A DNA stretch of 55,409 bases, filler included, from Jimgerdemannia flammicorona (lineage: Eukaryota), in the NCBI GenBank assembly GCA_003990765.1. It is 3 parts of 3 records of this genome, joined end to end, with 100 filler letters (N's around TTAATTAATTAA, not from the genome) between each part and the next. Parts side by side here need not be neighbours in the genome. Positions count along the whole stretch, not along the records: positions 1 to 18,409 come from RBNJ01002218.1; 2 more parts are not named here. The stretch is one strand, 5' to 3'. The position numbers were made by a program, and so were the translations under genes. Below are positions 1 through 55,409 of this stretch, piece after piece (position 1 is the first letter of the stretch; every line of letters begins with the position of its first letter). The notes under the pieces were generated by a model that saw nothing but the letters and a program-made list of their open reading frames with translations, made no database searches and was not told where the DNA came from.

Positions 1-610
1 ATGCCGGTCCCTGCACCACCCCACCCCCCACCAGCCAATCGAAAGGCCCCACCAAAATATTGTCCACCCCAGCTCTGATGACTGCCCCCAGCCTGGCACC
101 CCACTGGTTCATCGTAATCGCCCTTCCTCCTATCTGTGACGGCCATCTCCCCTCCCAACCCAACATCACCCGAAAAGCAGTCACCTATGCCAGAACCATG
201 CTCGCCGGGAAGCTCGCCAAAGCCAGAGGGCCCCACCACAGGCACCGAGGACCTGCAGGTAACCTATACTGAGCACTTGACACCCAAGGTCGGCCGACTC
301 CCTACGTAGCCTGAGACACACCAAGACAGCACCTTGTTGGCGATGGCAAAAGGAAGAAGGCGCCGCACCAAAACGGATGCACTCCAGACGCAGCCAAAGA
401 CACCAGAAACCACGAAAAAGTGGAGAAGACACCGATCGGATACCGATAAAAGGGCAACTCATCACCATTGCCCTCCTCCCACCATGCCCATGCAGGCACA
501 GCAAACCAACCCGAGGTAGAGGGGGTAATAATAGGGGAAAGGGGACTCGGAAGGTCGCTTACCAAACCTTGTGACTGGTAAGGTAGCGGAGAAAGGAGCT
601 GCCGGCCCTG
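1..610 (-). mobile_element. Non-autonomous poly(A) retroposon family R1, copy 1 (5' part; continues past the left window edge), inserted into the 3' LTR of Gypsy A
   Basis: 35-598 aligns with 13120-13683, the TSD-flanked copy. Both copies share nearly the same 5' end (plus strand ...gtaaggtagcggagaaaggag). LTR sequence resumes at 611 (acagattgtgttctcc = 9193 onward). Confidence 0.85.
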
Positions 611-1349
611 ACAGATTGTGTTCTCCGGTCTCTTCATTATAGTTGAAGTAATCGGGTGTGAATGCAGGTTGGTATTCATGCCAGTGATCATTGTTCCAAT
701 AAGTTTCATATACTGTTATGAACTGTTGTAAGTTCATTGGCAAGGTTGGTGGAGTGATCAGGGTTGGCAGAGATTCTTGGCTAGAGGTCATGTCAGCGTC
801 AGAGGGATCATTGTCTTCTGCTTCGTCTTCATCGAAGTGGATTATATCGTAGACATCCTTCATGGCATATCCAACTTGAGACATTTGCAGGATATGGTCA
901 TCAGGGTGTGGGAAGGTTCTGTCTGTAGTTTTGACGTACTCGAGGTACTTGTGGTTGAGTTCTTGTATCATGTCGTCGATTTGGCCATAGGACAGGGTAG
1001 CAACCATTTCACTGGTAGTGACTCGGAGGCAGGGAATAAAGGTGTTGTACTCATAGAAGAGTTCTCGATGTTTGCAGGTAATGAGCTTCTGGTGTTGAGA
1101 CATCTGTGTAATGTCTGTATAATGGTGATGTTCAACCATGTCTTCCAGGAGGTGGCCGATCTGGTAGTAGCTTGAGATTTGTCTGATTCGGTGGGCCTCG
1201 CTAAGTATGTTCAGAGCATTCCATCGGGTTTCCACAAAGTAGAGGAGTGCCAGATTATGGATATTCATGAGGGGCAGAGGGGGTGTGGCTTGGTTGACAA
1301 TGGCATTCCAAATGTCAGTGCGGATACAGTTGTAGATCTCAGTGGTCAT
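611..1349 (-). CDS. LTR(U3)-encoded accessory protein, stop-free N-terminal ~246 aa (MTTEIYNCIR...), truncated by the R1 insertion
   Basis: Part of ORF 462..1406. The same protein is encoded in all three LTR-A copies. TATATA and an A/C-rich leader precede the ATG. Confidence 0.75.
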
Positions 1350-1637
1350 GTTTGTGTGTTTGAAAGTTGTAGTTGTTGTTTGTTTTGGTTCTCTGATTCG
1401 ATGCATCTCGGTGCTTGGTATATATGCATTTGGTCCTGATTGGTAAGATTCCGTTTGTGTAAATCTTGTGTTCCATGACTTCGTATTGACTCAGCTTTGT
1501 GTGCTGTGACTTCAGTTTGACTCAGCTTTGTGATCGAGCAGGTGATTTCCAGGTTTGTTCAGAGGTCATGTGTGATTTCAGTGGCTTGTTCAGAGGGTGA
1601 CATGTAATTTCAGTAGCTTGGAGGTTGTGCGCTTACA
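611..1637 (-). repeat. 3' LTR of Gypsy A (U3 part; broken at 611 by retroposon R1)
   Basis: Near-identical to 9193-10219, differing mostly by transitions. Starts TGTAAGCGC on the minus strand directly after the PPT. Confidence 0.95.
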
Positions 1638-1653
1638 ACTCTCCTCTTCTTAG
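1638..1653 (-). other. Polypurine tract of Gypsy A
   Basis: Minus strand CTAAGAAGAGGAGAGT lies immediately before the TG of the 3' LTR. Confidence 0.85.
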
Positions 1654-4600
1654 CTTTCGACGTCCTCGTCAGGGCCTTCTAATTTGTTCTAGTGTTGTTA
1701 CATTGTTTGGGAGGTCAAAAGTCTGGTAAGGTCCATTTTCTCAGAAAGTGGTATGCTCGTAGTACAGTTGCCTAACACATTGGATTCACATGTTAAAGGG
1801 TCATGTGTTCAATGCCGTGTGCCAGAAGTGATTCTGACATCATTCACTGCTATAGAATTTCCTCTAAGGAATCTTCTTAAATGTCTATGCCTTGTTTCCC
1901 ACCAGTGGTACAGGGAGAATAGGCTTGCTTTCAGTTTTGCTATTTTTTCCAGAGGTCAGTATTCTTGTCCTGTTTTGCTGAGTTCTTGATTTGGTTCGTG
2001 ATAATTATAATGTTCAGGAGGATAATATATAGTATGTATGGATAGGTGTAGAGTATTTGGTTCTAGTTGTTCAAGGAATCATATTCCTGAACTAGGTCAG
2101 TAGCATTCTGAAGATTGGTCTTGGGTTCCCAGATTGCATCGTGGGTTGGGTAACCTTTCCATTTAACAAGGTACTCAGGGTGGTTCTTGTTACCACATTT
2201 GTTGAGGATTTGTTCAACTTCGTACTCTTCTTGATCATTAATGATGACAGGTACAGGTGGTTTGGTGATCTGATTTGGAAATAGTTCATCATTATTGTCA
2301 TTGTATTGCTTGAGATGCTGAACATTAAGGACTGGGTGAATCTTAATAGTGTCTGGTAGCGCCAGTTTGTAGGAGGTTGGAGAGACTTGTGTGATGACTT
2401 CAAATGGTCCAATGAACTTGCTGTTCAGCTTTGTAGATGGTCTGTGCTTGAGGTTGTCAACTCGGTATCCTCTGATGTCTAGTAGGACTTTTTCTCCAAT
2501 GTCAAAGGTTTCTTCTCGGCGGTGTTGGTTAACATACTGTGACTGTTGTTCTTGAGCTCGTGATAAATTCTCAATTGCAATCTGGTTTAGATTGCATATT
2601 CGGAGTAGGAATTCTTCAACAGCTTCGACTGTGGAGGGTTCATCGGTAGTTCGGAGAAGTGTCAGAGGGGTGTTTGGGTTTTGTCCAGTATTGGCAAAGA
2701 ATGGGGTCATTCCAAGAGAGGCTTGCTTGCTATTATTGTAGGCAAACTCAACTGCGGTGAGGTGTTCATGCAAATCATCTTGTCTGTAAGAGACATAGTT
2801 CCTTAGCATTTATTCTAGAGTTCGGTTCATTCTTTCGGTTTGGCCATCAGTTTCTGGATGAAAGGCTGTGGATAGTGCAAGTTTTGTTCCAAGGTGTGCA
2901 TGGAGGGCTTTCCAAAAGTGGCTGGTGAATTTCGGATCTCGGTCACTAACAATGATCTTAGGAAGACCATGATGGCAGAAGATGTTGTTAAACAAGAGTG
3001 TGGCTATGTCTGGTGCTGTTGCAGTAGTAGTAGTAGGCACAAAGTAGGCTTGTTTGCTGAGATAGTCCACAAAGACAACAATTGCATCTTTCCTATTCTT
3101 GGTTCAGGGTAGTTATATAATGAAGTCCATAGAGATTTGTTCCCAATTTGCAGATAGCACTGGGATAGGGTGAAGTAAGCCGGGTTTTGCTAGTGTTGAG
3201 GACTTGTTTCGTTGGCAGGCATCACAGGAAGTGATATAGGTTTTGAGCTGATCTGCTATGCGGGGCCAATAGAAGTTTTGGGAGATAACTTCATAGCATT
3301 TGTCAAATCCTAAATATCCAGCTGTAGGGGCATCATGACATTCAAATAGGATAGTCCTTCGGAGGTCTCGGTTGTTTGGAACATACAATCTGTCCTTGTA
3401 GTAGATAGCATTGTCCTTGAGTTGATATTGATTATACCAGGTATGCTTGTCAGCATTATCATTGTTCAGGATTTCTCGAAGTGCTTGAGCTTCTTTATCA
3501 TCAACACATGCTGCGATGATTTGTTCCATGATAGTGTTGGTAACCAAAGTCAGAGTTTGGATAACCTCTTCGATTGGTGGTCTGGAGATTGCATCAGCAA
3601 CAATATTTTCCTTGCCAGGGCAGTACTGGATTTCGTAGTCAAAGTTGGTGAGGACTTTCATCCATCTAGCTTGCTTTTGAGAAAGGGTAGCCTGTGTCTT
3701 GATGTTGACTAATGACTTGTGGTCAGTCAATACAGTGAAGTGTGCTCCTTCTAGGTATAGTTGCCATTTGATCAGAGTGTCTATGATGGCTAGCATTTCC
3801 TTCTCGTGAGTTACATAGTTGATTTTGGCATTGTTGAACTTGCGGGAGTGATAGGCCACAGGGTGTCCTTCTTGCATGAGCACTGCTCCAAGAGCTAGGT
3901 CAGAGGCATCAGTAGTGACTTTATATAGTAGGGCAGGGTTTGCTACTTGAAGTACTAGTGTGGTTATCAGGGCATCTTTCAGCACTTGAAAGGCGGTATC
4001 TTGTTCAGGTCCCCATGTTACAAGATTGTTGAAGTCTTTCTCTTATCTCATGGTCTAGGGTTGTTCTTGTTTCTTGCTGTGCTTGGTCATTTGGGTGAGG
4101 GCGGTAGCGATTTTAGCAAAGTTGGCAACAAATCACCTGTAATAGTTTGCTAATCCCAGGAATGACTGGAGGTCTTTCAGCTTCTTCGGTCTGGGCCAAT
4201 CTTTGATTGCAGAGATTTTGCTGGGGTCTACTTTGATTTCATTTGGTGTGACAATATGTCCAAGGAATTGAATTTCCTTCAGAAGAAATTCGCACTTGCT
4301 GAGTTTTGCAAAGAGTCTGTTTTCTCGGAGTTTCAGTAGTACTAGTTTAAGGTGTTCAAGATGTTCCTCCAGGGTTTTGCTGAAGACTAGGATGTCGTCA
4401 ATGTAGACAACAATGAATTTGTCCAAGTATGGGTGCAGAATAGTATTCATCAGTGTCTGGAAGGTTGCTAGAGCATTAGTTAAGCCAAAGGGCATAACCA
4501 GGAACTCGAAGTGTCTATAGCGAGTTCAGAAAGCTGTCTTGTAGATGTCTTCTTCTTTCATGGCAATTTGCCAGTAACCATTTCGCAGGTCAAAAGAGCT

Positions 4601-5718
4601 CATGAATTGTGGGTTGGTGAGCCTATCGAATATTTCATCAATTCTCAGTAGTGGGCAACAGTTCTTGATGGTCTGTTCATTGAGATTGCGGTAGTCAATG
4701 CACATTCGCAGATCTCCTCCTTTTTGACAACGAAGAGGACTGGTGCACTATAGAGTGATACGCTGGGTCTGATGAATCCTTGTTCTAGGAGTTCGTCGAT
4801 TTCCTTCTTGAGTACATCAATTTCTCTTGGAGACATATGGTAGATTGACTTGAAGGCTGGTTTGGCATCTGGGATAGTCTTGATAGCATGGTCAACTGCT
4901 CATTTGGGAGGTAGGCCTTTTGGGAGCTTCTTTGGGAATATGTCTCGGAATTTCTGGAGTAGTGGTCTGACATGGCTGTCAACTTTGGAAAAATCTTCTT
5001 CAGAGTTCTCGGGTTCTCCTTTGGATGGTCGGATGGAGATGGCGAAGAGAGGGCATTTCTTGGCCAATTTCTTGAGTTGTAGCTTGTTGATGTAGGTGAT
5101 CTTTGGTCCAGGGTCACTAGAGTTGAGTGGGTCCTTTTCGCCTTATAGTTTGAAGTTGTGGCGTCCTTTCTTGATGGTCAGAGAATGGTTTACCCAATCA
5201 ATCATGGGGTTCTCTTGTTTTAACCATGGGGTTCTAAGGATGATTTCATTGTCAGGGAGTGGTACGATCTGGAGGGTAACATGTACTTGATAGTTACCAA
5301 TTCGGAAGGGTAGATTGCAGACTTCTTTGCTAATAACATGTGAGGTTCCATCAGCTGTGGCAACTGCTTGAGTTTGCTATACTGGAGAGGTGAAGACCTT
5401 GAGTCTGTTGGCTGTCTCCTCATTAATGAAATTGTCTGAGGCACCACTGTCTATCATAATCTTGACAGGTGCTCCGTTGACAAAAGCTTTAAGGATGAGC
5501 AGTTTGTTTGATCCAATTGTGGTGATTTCAGTTGTAGGAGCCTTTCTTCTGTTGGTTCTCCTTTGAGCCAGTTCGTTGACACAAGAGAAGCAATCATCAA
5601 TCATTTGGGAAGAGTATATTCCAATGCCATGGGGACATCGGCCACTTGGTACATATCCATCTTCGATCTTCTTGTAGAATTGTTCTTCTTTGCTCATGGT
5701 AGGTTGGGCTGGGACCTT

Positions 5719-6129
5719 GCTTGATGAGCCAAATCCTTTGGATCCTCGGATGGTGGGTAGTAGTTCAGAGACTTCCTTGACTGTCAGGGTTGACTCGATT
5801 TTTTCAAATAGGATCTGGGTGATGCAGAAGCCAATAGGAATCTTGAAGAGTGTCCAACTGTGGTTTCGAATGAGGACAATAATTTCGCCTGTGTAATCCT
5901 CGTCAATGACTCCTCCTTCTACTGAGAGTCCTTTCAGTGCTAGGCTGCTGCGACAGCATATTCTTCCAACATGTCCTTCAGGGATTTGGATACTAATTCC
6001 TGTATAGACTTGTTTGACTTCTCGGTTGGAGACTGTAGCTTCTTTGGCTGCATACAGATCATATCCGGCTGCTTTTTGACTTCCTTTGATTGGGGCCTTA
6101 GCAGTTTGTCTTAGCTTGACAACGTCTAG
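5719..6129 (-). CDS. dut: dUTPase domain within Gag-Pol, between NC and protease
   Basis: Stop-free translation contains AGYDL, GRICCRSSLA, GGVIDEDYTGEI, ITQIL and RGSKGFGSS, the five trimeric-dUTPase motifs. In frame with gag and PR. Missed by the ORF track because it has no start codon. Confidence 0.93.
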
Positions 6130-8140
6130 TGTTCTGGTGGTCAGGTTGTTGAGATGGTGCAGAGTGGTAACAGTTGCTCATATTGCTGTTCGGGGTTTTT
6201 GGTTGGGGCAGGCACTGGCCATGTGTCCTGTCTTTTGGCAATAGAAGCATGCTCCACTTCTTCGAAGTTCATTTCTTTTACCTTCAGTAAGTTTCTTGAA
6301 GGTACTGGGCTGGGTGGGTTCATGATTTCTGAGTGTCCAAGAGGTGGATGTGGAGGGAGCTCGAGATGCTTTATGCTTGGGTTCTTCTTTCTTGGTCCAA
6401 GTCTTTTCCTTGTTGTTGAATTGCTTCCGGGGCAGAATTGGTCCAGCTGTTAGGATTCACTTGACCATAGTCTTGATTCTTGCCAGGCACCATTGTTGGT
6501 GATCACAACCAACTGGGCGGCCTTGTTCTTGGATTTTTCTAGTAAGCCATTCAGACAGGGCATCGAATAAATGGTCTGTTCTTGTACCATTTCGTGCTTC
6601 GTCATTGGCAATGTATCCTATGCCAACAGTATTCAGGAGTGACTCAAGTTTTGTACAGAAGGTTTCGAATTCTTCTTTGCTATGTATATCAAATTTGAGG
6701 TTGCAGAGTTTTACTCGAGATTCAGCAATCATGGTTTCGCTGTGGTATTGAGCAATCATGAGTTATTTGAGTCCAGGGGCTGCAGGATGGGCTCCATATC
6801 CTGGGGCATTGTTTGCTGCATTCTGGGCAATTACTGCAGGTTGGATATCCCATGTGAGGGGTTTTTCAGGAAGGGTTCGCCACCATTCTTCAGTAGGTCC
6901 TCGGAAGAATGTAACAACTCAGCGGACATAGGCTGTAGTGGTAGCAAAGAGTTGTTCCAGAGTGTGGTTTTGATTATTTGTCAGGATGCGGTCAGCAACT
7001 TGCTCATTAGTCCATTGATTGGCTTCGAAGTTGGTGTCAACTATACTAATGAAGCTTTGGACTTCTTGTGCAGTACCATTGAAGATAGGTAGGCTCAGAT
7101 TTTTGGTAGGTCAGGTCTGTTCAGCTAAGGCAATGATAGTTGCTGCCATTATAGCTACTTGGGCTGTGAGATCAAGAATCTGTTGGTTTGCTATATTGAT
7201 TGCTGGAGGTGGTTGGACTGCTGATAATGGTGTTACTGGTACTACTTGAGGTACTGGTGCAGAGTGTGATGGGGTTCTTTGAGTCTGTGTAAGCTGCTGG
7301 AGTAGTAGTTGTGGATCTGGAGTGAGGGCTTGATAGATAGCTGTTTGTTGCTGTGTAGGTATATTCTGTCCTGATGGATGTATGTCTCTTTCGGTGGTGT
7401 ATCCGGGATCGAATTCGGTGAGATACTCCTCCTCTTCTTCGGTTTGGTCCCCGTGTAATTGGGTTTGCTCAGCGTCAAAGTAGACAGAATCAGTTGTATA
7501 TCTGATTTCAGATGGACTTAATTCAAAGTCAAGTTCAGGTTCAGTATTAGTTTCAGATTCAGGTAGGGCTGTAGCAGGGCCTGCTTCAGGTTCGGGTTCA
7601 GGTAGTTGGTGAAGGGTTTTTCTTACTTCTTCCTTAAGGATATGGCAGGCCTTGCTGTTCTGGAATCGGTAGTATAAAGCGGTCTTAGTCCTGGTGTGGT
7701 GGAAGTCGGTAGAGTTGAGCCACTTAGCTATAGAGGCTTGGGCTTCATGAGGAACTAAGGCTAAAAAGACTGCTGCTGGTTGTCCTAGGTCGCTCAGATT
7801 TGTGGAGCTGACAAAACTCTTGTTGAGAAGAGTAAAGAAGACTTCAATAAGACCTTCTTCATCTTGACTTGCTGGGTGTAGTGCAAGGAGTTCAGTGAAT
7901 AGGGTTTCACCTATTTGCTGGTTTAACTGGAGTACTTCTTTCTTTGAATGAAGTTTGTCCCACTTGTTGTAGGTGTGGAGGTCAAATTGTCCTTGTACAT
8001 CAGGTTCAATTCTCTCCAGATTGTCAGATGGTTCAGATAAATTCCAGTTCAGAGGTTGGGCTTTATACCAACTTGTAGGAATTCGCAGAGGGTTTTGTAG
8101 CAGGGTGAGGAAGCATCTTGAAGTGGAATTGGATTGTAAA

Positions 8141-8152
8141 CTGCTGCTACCA
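8141..8152 (-). promoter_or_regulatory. Primer-binding site (probably initiator tRNA-Met)
   Basis: Minus strand TGGTAGCAGCAG begins 3 nt after the LTR-terminal CA. The tRNA identity is inferred from the TGGTAGC start. Confidence 0.8.
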
Positions 8153-8155
8153 AGT

Positions 8156-10219
8156 TGTAAGAGGGTTACTTTTTAGAGTGACTGTTACATAGTTCTGAAA
8201 AGGTTTTCTGGATATTCTGGATATTCTAGAAGACCATTTTCTTATGGTCAAGATCAATTTCATATGGAGTACATCCTCTACGCTTATTGATTTCAAGATC
8301 AGGTTGACATCTCAACCAAAGTCCTTTTTCGGACTAGTTCTGGATGTTCAGGATTTTCCGTATTTCAGGAAGTTCAAGAAACTAAGACCAGCTTAGTTAA
8401 ATTGGTGTATCGCTGCAGACAATACCCAATTAGGAAATTTTGTAATGGGGTTAGGAGTAGGACCTAACAGGGAGCAGATTTACTTAAGAGTAGTTTGTGG
8501 GTTATGGAATAGGTTTATTTGCTATTCATGATATTGCTATACTAGGAGTATTTGTGTGAAGGGATATTGTGGGGAAGTGCTCAGGAGTTGTGTTTGGATT
8601 GTTCAAGTCTGAGATTCTGAGGTCTGGGGGAGGGGGTATTTATACTAGTGAGGGGCTATCTGGACTATGCTGAATATGGATGTAGCACTAAGTGCCTTGC
8701 TGAGTCGGAATGCAGTCACGTAGTACAAGTGTGATCTGACATGTCAAGAGATCATCTGACTGCTGAGTCAGTTCACAGTCATGTCATACAAGGCTAATCT
8801 AACTATACTATGACTGCTAGGCTATTTATGGGTTTAGACACTGTCTAGGTAGTCTTCGATGACATCACTATCGATTACATCATCTCTGATGAAGTAGTTA
8901 TCTAGGAAGAGTGGTTCGCAGATTACTTCTCCTTGTTGGCTGAGGTAGTAATACATTGGAACTTCGTCTCTGTCCTACAGGATAGCATCGTCTGTCTCGT
9001 AGGCTAGATAAGGTGTTGGTGGGCGAAGGATGGGTGTATTGTCTTTGCTTTCATCAGATTCACTGTCTGCATATCTTCTATAGGTTACGGCACTATGAGT
9101 TGCAGGATTGTAGTATGCTGGCGGCTGTGATTCGTGTCGCTCGTACTCGGGTGATAGAGTGGTTGGTTCGATCTCGAGGGTTGTCTGGAGGTACAGATTG
9201 TGTTCTCCAGTCTCTTCATTGTAGTTGAAGTAATCAGGTGTGAATGCAGGTTGGTATTCGTGCCAGTGATCATTGTCCCAATAAGTTTCATATACTGTTA
9301 TGAACTGTTGTAAGTTCATTGGCAAGGTTGGTGGAGTGATCAGGGTTGGCAGAGATTCTTGGCTAGAGGTCATGTCGGCATCAGAGGGATCATTGTCTTC
9401 TGCTTCATCTTCATCGAAGTGGATTATATCGTAGATGTCCTTCATGACGTATCTGACTTGAGGCATTTGCAGGATATGGTCATCAGGGTGCGGGAAGGTT
9501 CTGTCTGTAGTTTCAACATACTTGAGGTACTTGTGGTTGAGTTCTTGTATCATGTCGTCGATTTGGCTATAGGACAGGGTAGCAACCATTTCACTGGTAG
9601 TGACTCGGAGGTGGGGAATAAAGGTGTTATACTCATAGAAGAGTTCTCAATGTTTGCGGGCAATGAGCTTCTGGTGTTAAGACATCTGTGTAATGTCTTT
9701 ATCATGGTGGTGTTCAACCATGTCTTCCAGGAGGTGGCCGATCTGGTAGTAGCTTGAGATTTGTCCGATTCGGTGGGCCTCGCTAAGCATGTTCAGAGCG
9801 TTCCATCAGGCTTCCACGAAGTAGAGGGGTGCCAGACTATGGATATTCATGAAGGGCAGAGGGGGTGTGGCTCGGTTGACAATGGCATTCCAAATGTCAG
9901 CGTGGATACAGTTGTAGATCTCAGTGGTCATGTTTGTGTGTTTGAAAGTTGTAGTTGTTGTTTGTTTTGGTTCTCTGATTCGACACATCTTGGTGCTCGG
10001 TATATATGCATTTGGTCCTGATTGGTAAGATTCCGTTTGTGTAAATCTTGTGTTCCATGACTTCGTATTGACTCAGCTTTGTGCACTGTGACTTCGGTTT
10101 GACTCAGCTTCGTGATTAAGCAGGTGATTTCCAGGTTTGTTCAGAGGTCGTGTGTGATTTCAGTGGCTTGTTCAGAGGGTGACATGTAATTTCAGTGGCT
10201 TGGAGGTTGTACACTTACA
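8156..10219 (-). repeat. 5' LTR of Gypsy A (2064 bp)
   Basis: TGTAAG/CTTACA inverted termini. Colinear with the solo LTR at 10920-14167. TATAAATA at 8637-8644 and TATATA near 10001-10006. Confidence 0.95.
8834..9931 (-). pseudogene. Full-length LTR(U3) accessory ORF (365 codons) with in-frame point stops
   Basis: Single frame from ATG (9931) to TAA (8834). Stops at ~9806 and ~9647 (CGA>TGA) and 8975 (TGG>TAG). Each stop is a sense codon in another LTR copy. Confidence 0.85.
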
Positions 10220-10919
10220 GAAATAATAGAAGTCTTTAATATTATCTATCATCCTTAGTTAGTAAAAGTTCTGAGTTATATTAGTAAGAGTTTTTTCATA
10301 ACCATAATATTTTATAAAAGGTATATCATAGTATTCTTATATAATCTGAAGTCTCAGTTTCTGATTTTCAGAGATTAAGACTCTTGTTTCATTATAGTAT
10401 AGTAATTTTTCTTTGAGGGTTAACTTCTTAATCAGTTCTTTAAGTCTTGAATTATTGATTGGATTTTGTAAAAATTTACAAATTTCTTAGTGAGTTAGAT
10501 TATAAACTTCTCTAATCTGATTCTTGAGATTATTAGTTATAATTGTAATAGCTATTATTTATTCTATTTATTTTATTCTTAAGAGAGCATTGGCTACTAT
10601 ATTTGATTCTCTAGGGTGATATTCTACTATTAAGTCATAATCTACTAAGACTTCTATCCATCTTACTTATCTTTTAGTCAAAGTAGATTGATAGTAAATA
10701 TAGATAAGAGATTGATAATCTATAATAACAAGAGAATGTTTTTCTATTAAGAAGTATCTTTATTCTTTAAGACTTCTAACTATAGCAAATAATTCCTTTT
10801 TATAGATAGTATATTTTATTTCTACTTCTTTTAACTTTTGAGAAAAATAGCTACTGAATATTTTTCTTAAGTAAGAACTGCTCTAATTGTATCAGTAATA
10901 ACTTCAAAGAAGCCTTTTG
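10220..10919 (-). mobile_element. Old AT-rich Gypsy pol relic (RNase H to integrase zinc finger); host of Gypsy A and solo LTR A
   Basis: Minus-strand translation includes RWIEVLVDYDLIVEYHPRESNIVANAL and YGYEKTLTNITQNFY. Continues across the solo LTR into 14168. Confidence 0.8.
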
Positions 10920-11207
10920 TGTAAGCACACAACCTCCAAGCCACTGAAATTATACATCACCCTCTAAACAAGCCACTGAAATTACACATGACCTCTGAAC
11001 AAATCTGGAAATCACCTGCTTGATCATGAAGCTGAGTCAAACCAAAGTCATAGCATACAAAGCTGAGTCAATATGAAGTCACAGAACACAATATTTATAT
11101 AAATAGAATCTTACCAATCAGAACCAAATGCATATATACCAAACACCAAGATGCGTCGAATCAGAGAACCAAAACAAACAACAACCACAACTTCCAAACA
11201 CACAAAC

Positions 11208-12304
11208 ATGACCACCAAGATCTATACCCATATCTGCACTGACATTTGGAATACCATTGTCAACAGAGCCATACTCCCTCTGCCCCTTATGAATATCCAT
11301 AGCCTAGCACCCTTCTACTTTGTGGAAGCCTGATGGAATGCTCTGAACATGCTTAGCAAGGCCCACCGAATCAGACAAATCTCAAGCTACTACCAGATCG
11401 GCCACCTTCTAGAAGATATGATTGAACACCACCACGATACAGACATTACCCAGATGTCTCAACACCAGAAGCTCATTGCCCACAAACATCGAGAACTCTT
11501 CTATGAGTATAGCACTGTTATTCCCTACCTCCAAGTTACCATAGCTGAAATGGTTGCTACTCTGTCCTATGGCCAAATCGATGACATGATATAAGAACTC
11601 AACCACAAGTACCTTGAGTATGTCGAAACCACAGATAGAACCTTCTCACACCCCAATGATCATATCCTGCAAATACCCCAAGTTGGATATACTATAAAGG
11701 ATATCTATAATATAATCTACTTCGATGAAGATAAAGCAGAAGACAATGATCCCTCTAATGCCAACATGACCTCTAGCCAAGGATTTCTGCCAACTCTGAT
11801 CATACCGCCAATCTTGCCAATGAACTTACAATAATTTATAACAGCATACAAGACTTATTGGAACAATGACCACTGGCATAAATACCAACCCGCCTTTATC
11901 TCTGATTACTTCAACTACAATGAAGAGACTGGAGAACACAACCTGTACCTCCAGACAACCCTCGAGATTGAACCAACCACTCCACTACCCGAGTATGAGC
12001 AATATGAACATGGCCACCAGCTTACTACAACCCTATGACTCATAGTGCTGTAACCTACAGAAGGTATGCAGACAGTGAATCTGATGAAAGTGAAGATGAT
12101 GCACCCCTCCTTTGCCCACCAATACCTTATTCAGTATATGAGACAGATGATGCCATCTTATGGGATGGAGATGAAGTTCCAATATATTATTATCTTAATG
12201 AACAAGGAGAAGTAATCCATGAACCACTCTTCCTAGATGACTACTTCATCAGAGATAATGCAATTAATGGTGATGTTATTGAAGACTACCCAGACAGTAC
12301 CTAA
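11208..12304 (+). pseudogene. Third copy of the LTR(U3) accessory ORF
   Basis: ORF fragments 11151-11333, 11349-11594 and 12035-12304 match the other copies. Several C>T stops and a 1-nt deletion near 12008. Confidence 0.85.
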
Positions 12305-12441
12305 ACCTATAAATAGTCTAGCAGTCATAGTATAGTTAGATTAGCCTTGTACTACATGACTGCATTCCAACTCAGCAAGGCACTTAGTGCTACATCCATA
12401 TTTAGTATAGTCCAGATAGCCCCTCACTAGTATAAATACCC

Positions 12442-12446
<5 letters not shown>

Positions 12447-12514
<68 letters not shown>

Positions 12515-13686
12515 TTTTACAGACTCATGTCCCGCGGATTTTTATTAGAAGGGAACCTAGACTATATAGGCCAAAACCCTCCCCCACCACCCACCAAGCA
12601 CTGCCCCCTCATTAACCTAGGCTAGCTATTGTCCAGCAGCTTGACCATACCAGGTGCAGCAGGGCTAATAAGCCCACACCTCATTCTGCACACCATGCTC
12701 TCCCTACCACCAGGGGAAACCCAACTATATGCCAACGACCAAAAGCACATGCCTGAGAACCCAACGTATGTATAAGGCTATACCCGAGCTGAATAGAATA
12801 GTCCCTGCCACCCCAAAGAGAATGACAGGTAAATAAAAAACCCTCATCAAAGCACAACATGGTGGGTAGGGCCTGGTTCTCCCAGTCGAGGTGAGTAAAG
12901 GACTTACATATGAGGTAGGAGGAAACCCCCAATACCCCACTACTCAAGCCTGTGGGCCTCGATCACATTGCCATGTCAGCTCCCAGTTCCAGTTGAGTGC
13001 AGCCAAGATGCCTGAAATGGGTAGCCTTGGGCCTCCTGACCCCTCCTGATGACTGGGGCCCAACCCTACTGACCGCCAAAAGAAGCCGATAGTGACACCT
13101 ACCACCTAACCACGCTGCACCAATCAAAAGACCCCACCAAAGCAGCACCTGCCCCAGCCCCGATGACTGCCCCCAGCCTAGCACCCTACTGGTTCACTGT
13201 AATCACCCTTCCACCTATCTGTGATGGCCATCTCCCCTCCCATCCCGACAACACCCAAAAAGCAGTCACCTATGCCAGAACTGTGCTTGCCAGGAAGCTC
13301 GCCAAAGCCAAAGGGCCCCACTACAGGTACTGAGAACCTGCAGGTAACCTATACTGAGCACTTGACGCCCAAGGTCGGCCGACTCCCTATGTAGCCCGAG
13401 ACACACCAAGACAACTCCTTGTTGGCGACGGCAAAAGGAAGAAGGCACTGCACCAAAATGAGTATACCCCAGATGCAGCTAAAGGTACCAGAATCCGCGA
13501 AAAAGTGAAGGAAGCACTGATCCGACACTGATAAAGGGGCAACTCATCACTATTGCCCTCCTCCCACCATGCCCCTGTAGGCACAGCAAACCAACCCGAG
13601 GTAGAGGGGATAATATTAGGAGAAAGGGGACTTGGAAGGTCGCCTACCAAACCTTGTGACCAGTAAGGTAGCGGAGAAAGGAGTCG
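12447..13686 (-). mobile_element. Retroposon R1, complete copy (~1.17 kb plus poly(A))
   Basis: 18-bp TSD AGTATAAATACCCCCTCT at 12429-12446 and 13687-13704. Poly(T) on plus at 12447-12513. AATAAA about 25-30 nt before the tail. No recognisable coding domain. Confidence 0.9.
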
Positions 13687-14167
13687 AGTATAAATACCCC
13701 CTCTCCCAGACCTCAGAATCCTAGACTTGAGTATACAAGAACATTCCTGAATACTTCCCCACAATATCCCTTCATATAACTACTCCTAGTATAGCAATAG
13801 CATGAATAGCAAATAAACCTATTTGATAACCCACAAACCACTCTTAAGTAAATCCACTCCCTGTTAGGTCCCACTCCTAACCCCATCATGAAATTTCCTA
13901 ATTGGGTATTGTCTGCAGTGATATACCAATTCAACTAAGCTGGTCTTAGTTTCTTGAACTTCCTGAAATATGGAAAATCCTGAACATCCAGAACTAGTCC
14001 CAAAAAAGGACTTTGGTTGAGATGTCAACCTGATCTTGAAATCAATAAGCATAGAGGATATACTCTATATAAAATTGATCTTGACCATAAGAAAACGGTC
14101 TTCCAGAATTTCCAGAAAACCTTTCCAGAACTATGTAATGGTTACCCTAAAAAGCAACCCTCTTATA

Positions 14168-16079: not shown

Positions 16080-17470
16080 ATGTCGGTCCCGCTTACGGCT
16101 TCGGGGTCACAGGTCGCCCTCTATCCCAAGGATACCGCCACCAAGGTACCCATCCTCAGTGCGCACCCTAACAATTATAAGTCAAATGCGATTGTGTCGC
16201 CAGCAGCTAATATGTTATGCAATACCATCTCAAGCATTAATTCCTGCAACAAAGCTTGCTGCTTCGAATGTCAAAGTCTCTAGCGTCACTTTCGAATGGA
16301 AACTTGACGCTTTCAACAAATTGGCGCCAAAGAAGTACGTGAGCGAACTCTTTTGGACGAGTGAAAGACATCCGTGGCGGTTGGCGTTCTATCCGGTAAA
16401 GTGCCGCTAGTTTTAATTGAATTAGTGGATGGCTAATAAATTGATTGGTTTAACCACTCTAATTAAGTGTGTATTTTAACAGTATGGCAACGCTAAAAGA
16501 AACACATATGATAATATGTCATTCTATTAGGAAAGTTCATATAATGACACTTTCCAGCAAGTCTATTTCAAAAGAAAAGACGTCGCGCTCGACTTATTTG
16601 CTCGCGTTGGAGAGGTTGAAGCACATCACTTTGCGAGGTGCCTTACCTTTGACGAAAAGAACATTAGTTGGGGTATGTTTCTGCTCATGCTCATGCTCAT
16701 TTTACTCCGTTTCCCGCAACACATTTCCCATGCTGGTCGATTCACCTTTCTTGTGGTTCCAAGGATCTAGCCAATTCCAACTTCGAAAAAAGCTGGTTGA
16801 CGCGCTCAAGACCGACGAGGACCCCATCTTGTTGAAAGCAGTCATCCAAATACCGAACGTTGAAATGTTAGTCCTGGCTCCAAACCCCTACTCCAAAGCC
16901 GCCACCGCCACTTTTCTTCAGAACTGTCAACACCGCGACGTCATCTTTCACGTCGACGGAAGGATTATGTACGCCCACGGAGGCCTCCTCGCCGCCCACA
17001 GCAAACACTTTGCTGCTCTGCTCAACGACAGCAAGGAAACTGCTCACAGTATCCCCACTGAAAAAGCGATTATTACCGTCACAGACGATAACCACGAAGC
17101 CTTCCTCTTGATGCTAAGGTATCTGTACACGGGCTCTTTGGACTTTCGCGGATGCCCCGAGGTCAAGGTAGTGGATCTATTCAAAGTTGCTGATAAATAC
17201 GATGTGTGGGCCTTGAGAGATGCGATGGAGGACTGCATCAATAACCTCACAGTTGGGAGCGTCGTCCCATTGCTCTTTGAGTTCGCATACAGTTACGCGC
17301 CCCTGCGCAAGGGGTATTTAAATTTCATTGGCAACAACTTCGAGGCCGTCAGGAAGACAGGCGCTTTCAACAAGTTAGAGAGGAATCCCTGTGGCTGGGA
17401 AGTTTACTCCGAGCTGATGAGGGAAATTGTTGAATGTGTCCCGACCAGAGATGCGGAAATGGAAAGCTGA
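16080..17470 (+). pseudogene. MATH-BTB/POZ (SPOP-like) gene with a premature TAG
   Basis: MATH motifs TFEWKLDAF, WRLAFYP-YGN, MSFY*E, WGSSQF. BTB motifs DVIFHVDG..YAH..LLAAHSKHF, FLLMLRYLYTG, ADKY. GT-AG introns 16396-16482 and 16673-16763; first intron uncertain. TAG at 16528-16530. Confidence 0.8.
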
Positions 17471-20805: not shown

Positions 20806-22101
20806 TTTTTTTTTTTTTTTTTTTTCTATAGGCTGTAGTCTCATTTATTAACTATCTATAATATGTCACTTATCCTTATACAATATCAGTAGCCCCATTC
20901 TCAATCTCAACCTACCTTCACACTCACCCAGTCTTACATCTTTAGAGTATGAGTTGTAACCTTACTACTTGAGTAACTAAATCCTTCTATCTAGCCTGCC
21001 CCACCCAGTGGGTATGGGTTGTGAGTCCCAACTACCTCAAGTACTTGGCATCTAGTGTATCTGACCTACTTCTATTAGTACCTTCTGTCTTGTCCATCTA
21101 GCCTATCTTACCTATCTTATCTGCCTATGTTGCCTATATTGTCTATATTGCTATCTTACCATCTTGCCTATCTTGCCTATCTTGCCCATCTTGCCCATCT
21201 TGCCCACCTGTATTGCCTGTATTACTCATGTTGCCCATGTTGTCCATATTTCCTATATTGCCCATATTGCCTATTTTGCCCATTTTGTCTATTTTGCCCA
21301 TCTTGCCTATATTACCTGTCTTGTCATCTGCCTGTCTTGCCCATATTGCCCATGTTGCTATCTTGTCTGTCTTGCCCATCTTGTCTATCTTGCCCACCAA
21401 TATTGTCCATATTGCCTATATTGTCTATGTTACCCATATTTCCTATATTGCCTGTATTGCTCATATTGCCTGCTATGTTATCTATATTATCCATATTGCC
21501 TATATTGCCTGTATTGCCTATATTATCTGTATTATCTACCTATATTGCCTGTGTTATCTGTGTTGCCCATTTTATCCATTTTACCCATTTTGCTCATCTT
21601 GCCCATATTGCCTATCTTACTATCTATCTATCTTGCCTATATTACCCATCTTGCTGTCTTGCCATCTTACCCATCTTGCCTGTCTTGCCCATCTTGCCTA
21701 TCTTACCTATCTTGTCTGTCTTGCCCATATCACTCATCTTGTTATCTTGCCATTTTGCCCATCTTACCTATCTTGCCTATCTTATCCATCTTACCTATCT
21801 TGCCCACCTGTATTACCCATGTTACTTATGTTGCCCATGTTGCCCATATTGCCCATATTGCCCATATTGCCCATTTTGCCCATTTTGCCCATATCACCAC
21901 CTGTCTTACTATCTACCTGTCTTGCCTATATCACCTGTCTTGCTATCTTGTCATCTTACTTGTCTGGCCCATCTTGCCCATCTTGCTTATCTTGTCTGCC
22001 CATGTTGCCCATGTTGCCCATATTGCCTATATTGCCTATGTTGCCCATATTGCCTGTAGCCTACCAAACTATTATGACTGATAAGGTAGTAGAGAAAGGG
22101 G
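20773..22101 (-). mobile_element. Non-autonomous poly(A) retroposon R2 carrying a 9-bp minisatellite, inserted in the Gypsy B integrase
   Basis: ~15-bp TSD TACTTAG(C/T)ATCTTCT at 20757-20771 and 22102-22116. Poly(T) on plus at 20773-20824 with AATAAA upstream on minus. 5' head matches R1. Confidence 0.85.
21085..22056. repeat. Degenerate 9-bp tandem repeat (TTGCCYATN), about 100 units
   Basis: Units such as ttgcccata, ttgcctata, ttgcccatc and ttgcccatg; produces the low-complexity ORFs at 21127-22139. Confidence 0.95.
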
Positions 22102-23429
22102 TACTTAGTATCTTCTGCTATTACAAGCAGAATAATTGAGACAAGTACTTAGCCTATACCAAGTTTATCTATAATAATAGCCAGCAAACCTCTATAAAGA
22201 AGACTCTATTCTTCCTAAACCATGGTTAACATCCAAGAACCCCAAGCATTACTTAAAATTAGTAGTTCCAATAGCCTAAGATTTGGCTGAGACTATTTCT
22301 GATCTTATGCAAATGACAAGAGATACTCTTATAGAAGTACAGGACTATCAGACCAAGTATGTGAACTTGAAGTGAAGAGAAGTCTTCTATAATATTGGTA
22401 ATATAGTTATACTTAGAACAGACCATCTTACTCTGGTATAGCAATCAGCCAAGAAACTCTATGCTAAAAGAATTAGACTATATAAGATTATGAAAAAAGT
22501 CAGCAGAGTCAACTATAAGTTAGAACTCTCCTATAATATTCAAGTATATCCAGTATTCCATATCAGCCAATTGGTAGACTACTATGAGAACATATTCTCT
22601 AAGTATATAGTTCCACCACTACTCCCAATTAGGATCAATGATGATGAGGAATTTGAAATCAAGAAAATACTTAACCACAAGATCCACAAACATACCAAAA
22701 CAGTCAAGTAGTTTTCCTCATCAAGTGAAAGAGTTATCCCATCTATGATGCTATCTGGGAAAAAGAAGAAGCTCTAGAGAATGCATATAAAGCCCTTCAG
22801 GACTATATGGAAATACTTACTCCTCAGCAGAGGAAGGAACTATAGCTCTAAAACTTAGAACACATAGTAAAGAAAGAAGATACAATATATTTAGCTAGAA
22901 TATACAATACTGAATATTACAAAAAAAGAAATACTATAGTTAATCAACAATAGGATACTCAGGTGAAGAACAACCCAGCAAGGTATAGCAAAATATATTT
23001 GAATAACTCTGTTTCATACTATTTATATCATCTCTGCTAGAGAGTGACAGATGCTTCATATAGAACTTAAGAAAGCTGACAATGTTAAATCCAATCTCAG
23101 CCCATCTATATGATAGATATTGTTACTAGGAATTACCTCAGATTACAAAAAATATTATTTTTGAGAGATTTGAACTCCCAGCTATAACAATAAGAGCCCT
23201 TGCCCTAGATAAGAATGGCCAGTTCTCACAAATGCATAATAAGATAAAAAAAAAGAGAACCAAGATCTGTTAACTGTATATAACTATAATCATAATATAG
23301 TAATATCTCAGGTGACCAGCATATACTCTGCTTAGAGTAATAAGTTATATATTCTATCAGAAAAGGTAATTGAATTAAAGTCACACCAAATAGGTGAATA
23401 AGTATAAATATCTAGAGCAAGAATATACT

Positions 23430-24309: not shown

Positions 24310-25072
24310 TATAATAGAATGAGTGAACAGATGAGACATAATATATGATGAGTGATTATGTGACCCAGTAATGATGTCACCATAAATTGAGTATAACATA
24401 TGATATATAAATATAATAAATAATATGAATAATGTGAAAAATAATATCCAGCTTATTCTCAACAATTAGTACTACAGTAACAAGTACTGCAGTAACTCTA
24501 ATCATTGTCTAACAATTGAGGTCCTGATAATAAAGTATATTTGATTACAAACCACCTGATAAAAGTTGTGATTACAAATCTCACTATAGTTATCAAATTA
24601 GTTACTTATACTTAGTCAGAAATTACAGATCAACTTATATAAATACTCCTCAGTTTCTATCTAAAATAAAGTAGTTTTAGTTCAGTCCTTGATACAAGAA
24701 TCAAGTCTCTCTCTACATATATACATTCTCCTGAGTCTTAGTAATGACATCTAACTGACTCTAATATTTCTGACTAAACTTCAGAAGCCTAGCTAACTTC
24801 TACCAGAACTAAGACTAGTATATAAATTACAAAGACTTAAGTAAATCCATTGAACCTGAATTCCAAGGTGAATTCAGTCTATATATAGTAAAGAACAAGT
24901 CTCTTACAACTAAGGTTGATAAGAAGGATACTGCTACTATAACTACTTTCAAGTAAGTACTTTCTTAAACTGAAGACTTCTTGATATATATTGTGTATCA
25001 AGTCTCTAAGTAATATCTTGTTTCTCTAATTATCCAAAGAATAAGAGAGGGATAGAAATAAGAGTTATTACA
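24310..25072 (+). repeat. 3' LTR of Gypsy B
   Basis: Follows the PPT. TATAATA (decayed TGTAATA)...TATTACA. Inverted homologue at 25949-26721. Confidence 0.88.
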
Positions 25073-26776
25073 ATATTATAGAGGCCTGGCTGGCCATGGG
25101 ATTAGCAGAGCTAGAGATGAGTAAGAGTGAGGATTTAAAGCAAAGATGGTGGCAATTAGAAGACCTTTAAGTTGGTGGCCACTAGTTGGCAGTATACTTT
25201 CTGTCTGAGACAATAGAATGGATCAGGTCTGGCCCCCTTGAGAGATAGTCAGTAGGTTGGCAGAAGACTGGATTTAGTGAAGACTAGGAATAAGGACAGG
25301 TCTGGAGCTAGGGGACTTCCTTGCTTAAGATTGTAATGCCTAAGTATTGAGTAGTATGGTGGTGATTCTTGAGGAGAAATGTGATACTAGGTTACTGGAT
25401 AAGATAGATAGAGGTAGAAGGTAGTCAGAAATATAAATAGTGTAGTGAGGTAGATAGAGGGGTGATTAGACACCAGAGTATATCCTGGCAGTCTGTCCTG
25501 GTGTAGAGGGGTATTAATAGATATTGGAGGATTATTAGAGCTCTGAGAGTAGATAGACAGGAGATTCCACTAGTCTGGTAGTCAAACTGTAGCTAGTGGA
25601 AGAGACTGGTAATATTTAGGGTAGTCTGGGTTGAGTTCTGAGAGTCTGGATCCTGATGGCAGTACATTGGTAATGGGTGTTTGAGTAGGATTTATAGATA
25701 GAAATTAGTTAATTGATTGAGCAGTGGAGGTGACTTCTCCAGAAAGTAGTGTAAGAGTGGTAGTATCAGAGGAAGTAATATCAGCTGAGAGCTATGAGGA
25801 AGATACAGGACATTGTACAGAGGAGCCAAGGTCATCTGGTACTGGATGGTCAGAGGGTTCAGTAGAAGGAGAGTATTGGCTAATAGATCTTTTATTTGTA
25901 TATTATCATTATAGCCATTAATATATAGGGTTTGTTATTGTATTAGATTGTAATAACTCTTATTTCTATCCCTCTCTTGTCCTTTTGATACTTAGGGAAA
26001 TAAGGTATTACTTAGGGACTTAATATACAATATATACCAAGAAGTCTTCAGTTTGAAGAAGTGCTCACGAAAGTAGTTATAGTAGTATCCTTCTATCAAT
26101 CTTGGTTATAAGGGACTTGTTCTTTGCTGTGTACAGACTGAATTTGCCTTGGAATTCAAGTTCAATGGGTTTACTTAAGTCTTTTGTGATTTATATACTA
26201 GTCTCAGTTTGGGCAGAAGTTAACTAGGCTTCTAGAGTTTAGTCAGAAATACTAGAGTCACTTAGATGTCATTACTAAGACTCAGGGAAATGTGTGTGTG
26301 TGGAGGGAGACTTGATTCTTGTATCAAGGACTGAACTAAAACTGCTTTATTTCAGATAGAAACTGAGGAGTATTTATACAAGTTGATCTGTGATTTCTGA
26401 CTAAGTATAAGGGACTAATTTGGTAACTATAGTGAGGTTTGTGATTGCAACTTTTGTCAGGTGGTTTGTAGCAAAAAACACTTTGTGATTAGGACCTCAA
26501 TTGCTAGGCAATTATCAGCATTGCTAGGCAATTATCAGCATTGCTGTGGTGCTGGTTGCTGTAGTGCCGATTGCTGGGGATAAGCTGGATATCGTTTATT
26601 CGCATCGTTCGTATCGTTCGTATCGTTCGTTACGTTCATATATCGTATGTCGCGCTCGATCGTGACGTCATCGCCGGGTCACGTGATCTCTCGTCGCGTC
26701 TCATCTGTTCGCTCTATTACATAGATATTCTTAGGTAATAAAGGAGTCCAAGTAACTATAAAAAAAAAAAAAAAAA
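25073..26776 (+). mobile_element. Decayed LINE 3' end (ORF2 C-terminus, 3' UTR, poly(A)), interrupted by solo LTR B
   Basis: MPKY*VVWW*FLRRNV and TPEYILAVCPGVEGY match LINE ORF2 at 36270-36460. Tail ggtaataaaggagtccaagtaactat(A)n matches 36887-36918. Confidence 0.75.
25949..26721 (-). mobile_element. Solo LTR of family B
   Basis: TGTAATA...TATTACA termini. 5-bp TSD TAGAT at 25944-25948 and 26722-26726. Confidence 0.92.
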
Positions 26777-37929: not shown

Positions 37930-38175
37930 TGGATTGAAGGATTCAGTTGAAGGATTCAGATGAGGATTCAGATTGAAGGATTTGAATTGGAGGATTTAAA
38001 TTAAAGGATTTAAATTAGAGGATTTGGATTAAGTGATTCAGATTGAGTGATTCAGATGTAGTGATTCAGATTAATCTGAGTTGATTTGGATGGCTTCAGA
38101 TTTGAGATTCAGATCAAACCATCATGTGATGAATTGAATCTGGATTTGATTCAAATTAACTCATTCAGAGCACTA
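37930..38175. repeat. Degenerate ~15-bp repeats (gaaggattcagatt) ending in CAGAGCACTA; possible DNA-transposon end
   Basis: Visible periodicity. The terminal 10 nt are the reverse complement of 31362-31371. Confidence 0.5.
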
Positions 38176-38224
38176 GTTATAGATATCAAATATAATATAA
38201 CTATATATAAATATATCCAGTGCA

Positions 38225-38535
38225 CTCTATTTAGTTATAGCTTCAAATCTGTATAAATATCCTCTGTACTGAGTATGTTGTAACCTCAGTTCTGCTTTCT
38301 CCAAACATAAGAATAAAGCAGTATTCTTATTACAGAACCCTCAGATCCAACTTGTTAATAATTTTGAGCCTGATCAACTTGGGATAAGTACAGTACTTCC
38401 ACAAAAACCCAAAAGTAATACTTGGACTATACTGCCATGACAGGCAATTGGAACTTAGTGCTTCCTCAAAGCTTAGAGCTGATAATTATCTTGATTATCC
38501 ACAACATATTAATTCTATCAGTATATAGTTTTATT
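38225..38535 (+). repeat. Dispersed repeat; inverted homologue at ~53868-54200
   Basis: For example cttgattatccacaacatattaattctatcagtatatagtttt matches the reverse complement of 53868-53910. Confidence 0.8.
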
Positions 38536-55207: not shown

Positions 55208-55283
<76 letters not shown>

Positions 55284-55409
55284 GAACTCATGTTCTATGG
55301 ATTTTTATTGGAAGAGAACCTAGACTATATAGGCCAAAACCCTCCTCCACCACCCACCAAGCACTGCCCTCTCATTAACCTAGGCTAGTTATTTTTTTGT
55401 TGTTTGTCC
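55208..55409 (-). mobile_element. Retroposon R1, copy 3 (3' end and poly(A); probably cut by the window edge)
   Basis: 55285-55392 matches 12522-12630, following a ~70-nt T run. Confidence 0.88.

Follow-up and report, generated by a model that had tools for sequence, protein, structure and literature searches.

In MMTV (mouse mammary tumor virus), the U3 region of the long terminal repeat (LTR) contains an open reading frame (ORF), sag, that encodes a superantigen, and in foamy viruses and in human and simian immunodeficiency viruses (HIV/SIV) the 3'-terminal accessory genes Tas/Bet and nef, respectively, overlap U3, with foamy viruses having an internal second promoter as well. In Cassandra, a terminal-repeat retrotransposon in miniature (TRIM), the LTRs hold a 5S rRNA gene that has a polymerase III promoter of its own. 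Additional ORFs (aORFs) are also found in LTR retrotransposons, the accessible text of PMC7264820 describing env-like ones in Athila/Bagy2, antisense ones in Grande/RIRE2/Retand, and brtn in Boty, and chromoviruses bearing a dUTPase are known in fungi, among them PosPlaTy3 from Postia placenta as well as elements from Phanerochaete and Tuber (PMC2864245, accessible text). Here, we analyze a 55-kb window (i.e., the whole stretch of 55,409 nt, along which all coordinates are counted) of the Jimgerdemannia flammicorona assembly GCA_003990765.1, in which a decayed Ty3/Gypsy chromovirus occupies positions 611-10219 on the minus strand. Inside its LTR, a repeat present three times in the window and called LTR-A below, lies a sense ORF of 365 codons plus stop. 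Taking all the evidence together, we consider it likely that LTR-A is the LTR of a dUTPase-bearing chromovirus and carries a real, selected 365-codon accessory gene.

Retrotransposon LTRs are taken to be control regions without coding capacity. They are masked by annotation pipelines, and a solo LTR passes for an inert scar or an enhancer. In a literature search that reached few subscription journals, we found no account of a fungal Ty3/Gypsy element with a sense ORF inside its LTR, in line with an earlier sequence-only reading of this locus (hereafter, the original prediction), which knew of no such case in these elements. Our searches turned up only retroviral (MMTV) LTR ORFs, and the accessible portions of PMC4299795, PMC5408684, 10.1101/2021.04.13.439636 (on Botrytis), and 10.64898/2026.05.04.722472 (on Blumeria) describe no ORF inside an LTR. 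The repeats and ORF copies on which the argument turns are as follows.

8441..10219, minus strand: 5' LTR, 1779 bp, with termini TGTAA...TTACA, defined by repeat structure.
611..1637, minus strand: visible part of the 3' LTR, starting at 1637; 94.45% identical to 9193-10219.
1639..1658, minus strand: polypurine tract (PPT), GAAAGCTAAGAAGAGGAGAG, adjoining the 3' LTR with a single T between.
8834..9931, minus strand: LTR ORF, 5' LTR copy; 365 codons plus TAA, with four in-frame stops.
612..1349, minus strand: LTR ORF, 3' LTR copy (P0001); codons 1-246, stop-free, interrupted by a retroposon at 611/610, after which the window ends.
10920..12445, plus strand: third LTR-A copy (copy 3), first part; inverted, ~87% identical.
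11208..12304, plus strand: LTR ORF, copy 3; three stops and a 1-bp deletion, the frame resuming to the same stop position.
13687..14165, plus strand: third LTR-A copy, remainder; made up of the LTR's 3' part plus ~280 bp of internal sequence, at the end of which it is truncated.

The direct repeats 10219..9193 and 1637..611 match at 94.45% identity, and the LTR has TG...CA ends, identifying them as an LTR pair; the 3' end of the 3' LTR falls outside the window, beyond position 1. Because ~280 bp of internal sequence follows the LTR in copy 3, this copy is what remains of a second element and not a solo LTR. The ORF begins 288 nt within the LTR, downstream of both the PPT and the LTR 5' edge, and it ends upstream of the TATAAATA box at 8637-8644; its location inside the LTR, as originally predicted, is thus a matter of direct observation. 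An identical purine tract directly precedes the LTR edge in contigs of public run X3. Since the ORF is 3' of the PPT, reverse transcription copies it into both LTRs, and it therefore sits in the presumed U3. The main ATG (at 9931) has an A at -3, and an alternative in-frame ATG is found 19 codons upstream (9986..9988, minus strand).

The original prediction held that each of the three LTR-A copies encodes the same protein of ~365 residues. The ORF is indeed found in 3/3 local copies, and its region is covered by contigs in 4/4 public runs, but none of the local copies is intact and one is visible to codon 246 only. It had further been proposed that each stop of the 5' LTR copy corresponds to a sense codon in one of its sisters, and this is borne out. 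The four stops (codon 42 TGA, 85 TAA, 95 TGA, and 319 TAG) are all of the C>T or G>A type, and each is sense in a sister copy or in the homologs P0002 and P0003 described below: codon 42 reads CGA in the 3' LTR copy; at codons 85 and 95, the 3' LTR copy and copy 3 both have CAA and CGA, respectively; and at codon 319, copy 3 has TGG and P0002 has W. An ancestral sequence reconstructed from the three copies with changes polarized by deamination is open throughout, again as anticipated.

An open frame and an apparent third-position bias could, in principle, arise with no gene present, as by-products of an A/C-rich strand and of CpG placement: the sense strand is 61% A+C, which lowers the stop frequency, the C-terminal half of the protein is predicted to be disordered, and nearly all changes are transitions, which inflates naive tests. 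Such an origin is extremely improbable in our view. The 3' LTR copy contains a stop-free run of 293 codons, a length reached in 0/5000 first-order Markov simulations (maximum, 228); because no composition-matched simulation attains it, the open frame is not due to chance. Between the 5' and 3' LTRs, 41/43 differences in codons 1-246 are transitions, as are 88-89 of the 98-99 differences between either LTR and copy 3 (88/98 for the 5' LTR), and many inter-copy differences fall at CpG sites. Differences that are nearly all transitions and are often at CpG fit methylation-driven deamination. For the same reason, the Nei-Gojobori ratio of nonsynonymous to synonymous rates (dN/dS), 0.22-0.32, was rejected as biased; even the two LTRs of one element gave it.

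In its place, the observed C>T/G>A changes were compared with all possible changes of the same class on the same sequence, an expectation that, in the ORF frame, amounts to 40% synonymous and 7% nonsense. Among the changes common to both LTRs relative to copy 3 (i.e., those that predate the insertion), 13/18 are synonymous and five are missense (p=0.006), whereas the same 18 changes give 2/18 and 3/18 synonymous in the other two frames. No such bias is seen in the private changes, of which 1/9 are synonymous in the 5' LTR, 3/12 in the 3' LTR, and 19/50 in copy 3; these fit neutral decay after insertion ("neutral or worse").

A second comparison makes use of contigs from four public runs (3537, 400, 414, and 283 contigs) aligned to 8300-10300. 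Among the best-supported 40 of 438 variants, which make up the variant table, 24 are inside the ORF, and 17 of these are polymorphic among family copies (runs X1 and X3). Fourteen of the 17 are synonymous third-position changes, and the remaining three are missense (I>V, E>Q, and H>R); 14/17 departs from the 40% expectation (p=4.8e-4) and from one third, i.e., an even spread over codon positions (p=4.7e-5). At the other seven ORF sites, it is the 5' LTR copy that departs from nearly all contigs, and since six of the seven are missense, we regard them as private damage to that copy. CpG-type mutable sites are similarly common at codon positions 1 and 3 (56 and 47, respectively), yet the polymorphic variants number 2 and 14, and mutation bias is therefore no explanation for the third-position excess. 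As judged from these substitution patterns, the ORF is shown to have been under purifying selection in replicating lineages, with an open ancestral frame.

How the gene might be expressed is suggested by motifs on either side of it, all on the minus strand.

10137..10202, minus strand: a tandem pair of 32-nt repeats at the 5' end of the LTR.
10048..10109, minus strand: a tandem pair of 31-nt modules, both containing GCTGAGTCA and located 42-100 nt upstream of TATATA.
10001..10006, minus strand: TATATA box, ~70 nt upstream of the ORF ATG and followed by an A/C-rich leader; candidate ORF promoter by motif only.
8698..8803, minus strand: two 43-nt modules upstream of TATAAATA, related to the upstream modules but inverted.
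8637..8644, minus strand: TATAAATA box, presumed genomic RNA promoter, 190 nt past the ORF stop codon.
8514..8519, minus strand: AATAAA, a candidate signal for polyadenylation, within the presumed R region.

The TATATA with its A/C-rich leader and the second box ~190 nt beyond the stop are thus where the original prediction had placed them. Inverted pairings between the upstream and downstream modules are 71-77% complementary over 30-31 nt, and a fourth pairing is 75% complementary over 20 nt. All exact matches to GCTGAGTCA in the 55-kb window (7/7) are within LTR-A copies; TGAGTCA is presumably a Gcn4/AP-1 type site. Both TATA boxes have a pair of related modules 42-53 nt upstream, and such paired modules fit two promoters, without proving them; a promoter of its own for the ORF is plausible from this layout. 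Contig depth in runs X18/X20, which may be RNA, is high over 8367-8567 and low over the ORF, a measure that cannot rank parts of the stretch and from which we draw nothing.

Retroviral sag, nef, and env messages are spliced or subgenomic RNAs made from the 5' LTR promoter. Here too, the gene could be real and selected but translated from a spliced or subgenomic RNA initiated within the 5' LTR at its TATAAATA promoter, with the TATATA and the modules serving as enhancers. The ORF would be at the 3' end of any full-length RNA, U3 repeats like those at 10048-10202 commonly serve as enhancers, one of the downstream modules is variable in number, a trait of enhancer repeats (63 bp are missing in copy 3 and in a run X3 contig), and a transcription start at ~9970 is a putative one. 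Set against this, no splice donor/acceptor pair was identified, the TATATA stands at a workable ~70 nt from the ATG, and the spacing of its module pair is like that at the main promoter. On balance, we hold expression from the TATAAATA promoter to be rather unlikely, and we prefer a selected gene with a putative promoter of its own.

Protein searches, in libraries in which eukaryotic genomes are thinly represented, returned P0002, P0003, and one rejected candidate, and no cellular homolog outside the element. P0002 (247 residues) is 67-68% identical to the ORF protein, is open to the same C-terminus, and has two 2-residue indels only; P0003 (128 residues) is 86-88% identical and open at all three N-terminal stop sites. 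The rejected candidate, P0004, is a 436-residue repeat protein (E 4e-8) in which a single 36-residue motif, 36% identical, is repeated six times, with 24 spurious Pfam rows. Kinship with the element's own gag was also rejected (hhalign probability 0.06). In JGI metagenome contigs, a peptide pattern gave 74 matches, 0 of them confirmed, and a 23-base DNA pattern gave 0 matches; in viral contigs, 10 pattern matches were obtained, and 0 were confirmed.

The protein itself is acidic (isoelectric point, 4.4). Its N-terminal half is predicted, at low confidence, to be helical and its C-terminal half (193 residues) to be disordered, the latter containing 44 D+E, 7 K+R, 18 P, and 18 Y; predictions and composition agree with the helical N-half and the acidic, Pro/Tyr-rich C-half that had been noted from the sequence. 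Two acidic-hydrophobic clusters (approximately residues 165-180 and 338-362) are kept between the window copies and P0002. The base composition at codon positions and the codon use of the ORF resemble those of gag-pol (relative synonymous codon usage, r=0.82), and this match makes it probable that the ORF has long resided in the element and is not a recent capture.

This last result bears on the idea that the ORF is a passenger, i.e., a host gene or a piece of a mobile element captured into an ancestral LTR, with no role there and open merely because it is young. Gene capture by LTR elements is known (accessible text of PMC7264820), the protein has no recognizable transposable-element domain, and the inverted 31-nt modules flank the TATATA-ORF block much like the ends of an inserted cassette. 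Yet the modules are tandem pairs on both sides and not termini, and no target-site duplication is seen around the ORF block, a separate insertion with its own duplication being the outcome that the original prediction had named as counting against it. A passenger is likewise hard to reconcile with a synonymous excess that is confined to lineage-level changes and to the ORF frame, with P0002 remaining open at 67% identity, with composition and codon use that match gag-pol, and with the lack of a cellular paralog in the protein searches. We therefore judge capture without a role to be quite improbable.

Several points weigh against a selected gene in LTR-A. No local copy is intact (0/3), and the codon-42 stop is common to the 5' LTR copy and copy 3, so that it could be ancestral as opposed to the result of two parallel CpG hits. 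Copy 3 diverges from the element by 13.3% and 17% in the ORF, by 10.8% in the upstream LTR, and by 4.3% downstream; the ORF is thus no better conserved than the non-coding parts of the LTR, which we attribute to post-insertion decay. The two selection tests rest on 18 and 17 changes, the second drawn from a filtered table (the best 40 of 438 variants). Only two relatives of the protein, P0002 and P0003, are found among ~15 billion proteins, and the contigs that hold them are short (1180 and 998 bp), with no visible context. Pfam yields no family at E up to 5 for P0005, P0002, or P0003, the best match in a PDB sequence search has E 0.28, the ESM Atlas gives no usable match, and an AlphaFold model built on a 4-row alignment is poor (mean predicted local distance difference test score, 34.4). 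It should also be noted that we infer the promoter, the transcription start, the polyadenylation site, and the function.

With these points in mind, a selected U3 gene might work as follows. The ORF lies in the presumed U3 between the upstream repeat/TATATA region and the TATAAATA box, the latter presumably driving the genomic RNA. Transcription of the ORF would begin at the upstream TATATA, with its own pair of GCTGAGTCA modules, and would end at the LTR's own AATAAA; with such a start and such an end, each LTR may be a self-contained promoter-ORF-terminator gene, a possibility that we advance tentatively from the motifs. Every genomic RNA would, in addition, contain the gene at its 3' end. 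After insertion, C>T and G>A transitions accumulated, a neutral decay that has killed the three local copies as well as gag-pol. As for the product, a soluble, very acidic protein that would serve in the nucleus as a co-activator or an anti-silencing factor for the element's own expression is a guess that we think unlikely to hold; it is made because of the two conserved acidic-hydrophobic clusters, its sole basis. More doubtful still is the full proposal that the LTR is a free-standing gene whose acidic product activates the LTR, or blocks silencing by heterochromatin or RNA interference, family-wide in trans. If it were true, every insertion would deliver two expression units and every solo LTR one, dead and solo copies would keep helping live ones, and retroviral regulatory genes would have a counterpart in retrotransposons that originated independently in fungi.

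The remainder of the element, annotated by Pfam except for the first two rows, is laid out as follows.

1659..8440, minus strand: decayed internal region, split into many frames.
7114-8172, minus strand: gag-like ORF of 353 residues, without a Pfam match.
5380-6177, minus strand: dUTPase (E 3e-33) and the start of the aspartyl protease (PR).
4136-4525, minus strand: reverse transcriptase (RT; RVT_1).
3116-4042, minus strand: RNase H (RH; RT_RNaseH) and integrase (IN) zinc finger (Integrase_H2C2).
2066-2809, minus strand: Tf2-type SH3 domain (SH3_Tf2-1) and chromodomain (Chromo).

The Pfam domains follow the order PR-RT-RH-IN with a C-terminal chromodomain, as in chromoviruses, in broken frames; because gag-pol is broken into many pieces, the element is dead. 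Only ~400 nt separate the end of the chromodomain ORF (2066) from the PPT (1658), which leaves no space for env. On inspection for a primer binding site, a TGG is found only 12 nt downstream of the 5' LTR (8441), and no tRNA gene for comparison with the site was found in the window. The dUTPase domain sits just upstream of the aspartyl protease in the polyprotein, a position known for some basidiomycete chromoviruses (PMC2864245, accessible text). The LTR-A element looks fungal and is probably basidiomycete in type. Its family is abundant, among contigs of the public runs, in soil metagenomes and in two organisms. The two LTR-A elements are head to head, with ~700 bp of AT-rich DNA between them (10220-10919; GC 0.29 in the 10001-11000 bin). 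Host-like frames nearby include one with a BTB/POZ domain (16463-17467, plus strand, E 7e-16) and one with a protein kinase domain (28581-30473, minus strand, E 3e-9, plus a weak fungal-kinase match).

LTR-A has itself been a target of other elements, two of which are non-LTR retroposons with poly(A).

12446..13686, minus strand: nested poly(A) retroposon, non-LTR, 1241 bp, with a 68-nt T run on the plus strand.
1..610, minus strand: 5' part of a related poly(A) retroposon, 88% identical, which splits the 3' LTR at 611/610 (ORF codon 246) and leaves the window.

The retroposon in copy 3 has duplicated 17 bp of its target, present at 12429-12445 and again at 13687-13703, and the duplicated stretch is exactly the TATAAATA box of the LTR. 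Its frames (12446-13686) have no Pfam match, and its 3' end recurs at 55208-55393 with 93% identity. In X18/X20 contigs, which stem from other carriers, the same foreign end (TGTAATGG...) abuts LTR-A at 8744, 9293, and 10027, which suggests that another LTR element has repeatedly inserted itself within LTR-A. Elsewhere in the window, positions 21065-22139 hold ~1 kb of degenerate internal repeats, with 71-79% self-identity at many offsets, three open plus-strand frames, and a strong excess of C and T. Two pairs of long inverted repeats, one at 24504-25080 and 25941-26512 (579 bp at 87%, flanking ~860 bp) and one at 38174-38536 and 53864-54243 (~380 bp at 80%), may be remnants of other transposons.

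A selected gene in an LTR, if this reading is true, would be doubled with each insertion, would outlive the LTR-LTR recombination that removes gag-pol, and could be supplied in trans from thousands of otherwise dead copies. Outside vertebrates, it would parallel the U3 genes found in complex retroviruses, and it points to a simple route by which U3 genes may arise, in that a 3' accessory ORF becomes part of the LTR once a PPT lies upstream of it.

Among the systems with which the locus can be compared, MMTV sag is similar in being a complete sense ORF of a few hundred codons in the LTR, and so in both LTRs, in addition to gag-pol. The LTR-A ORF ends 190 nt before the TATAAATA box and may lie wholly ahead of the genomic RNA start. 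It differs from sag in showing no sequence likeness to Sag or Nef (no Pfam match at E up to 5 and no PDB match below E 0.28), in having a fungus-like host and residing in an env-less Ty3/Gypsy chromovirus, and in encoding an acidic product with no evident membrane segment. With foamy virus Tas/Bet and with nef it has in common a 3' accessory gene in, or reaching into, U3 and possibly a second promoter, and an acidic activator of the element's own LTR is our guess at function. Those genes, however, overlap U3 and start upstream of the PPT, whereas here the whole ORF and its putative promoter are inside the LTR, and no homology to them was found. Cassandra is similar in layout, with an LTR that has a complete gene and its own promoter (putative here) and therefore two copies per insertion, but there the gene is a host-captured RNA gene and here it is a protein-coding ORF without a host counterpart.

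Retrotransposon aORFs, as far as the accessible text of PMC7264820 describes them, resemble the LTR-A ORF in being family-specific, in having no assigned function and no cellular homolog, in being present in most copies, and in being found on the 3' side of pol; they are internal, however (before gag or between pol and the 3' LTR), whereas the LTR-A ORF has the PPT upstream of it and is duplicated. Elements of the PosPlaTy3 type share with the LTR-A element a dUTPase on the N-terminal side of Pol, followed by PR, RT, RH, IN, and a chromodomain, and differ in that the accessible text of PMC2864245 mentions an "additional ORF" only in a figure legend and states no LTR-internal ORF. The LTR-A ORF thus joins two known kinds of gene, the accessory ORFs of retrotransposons and the U3 genes of retroviruses.

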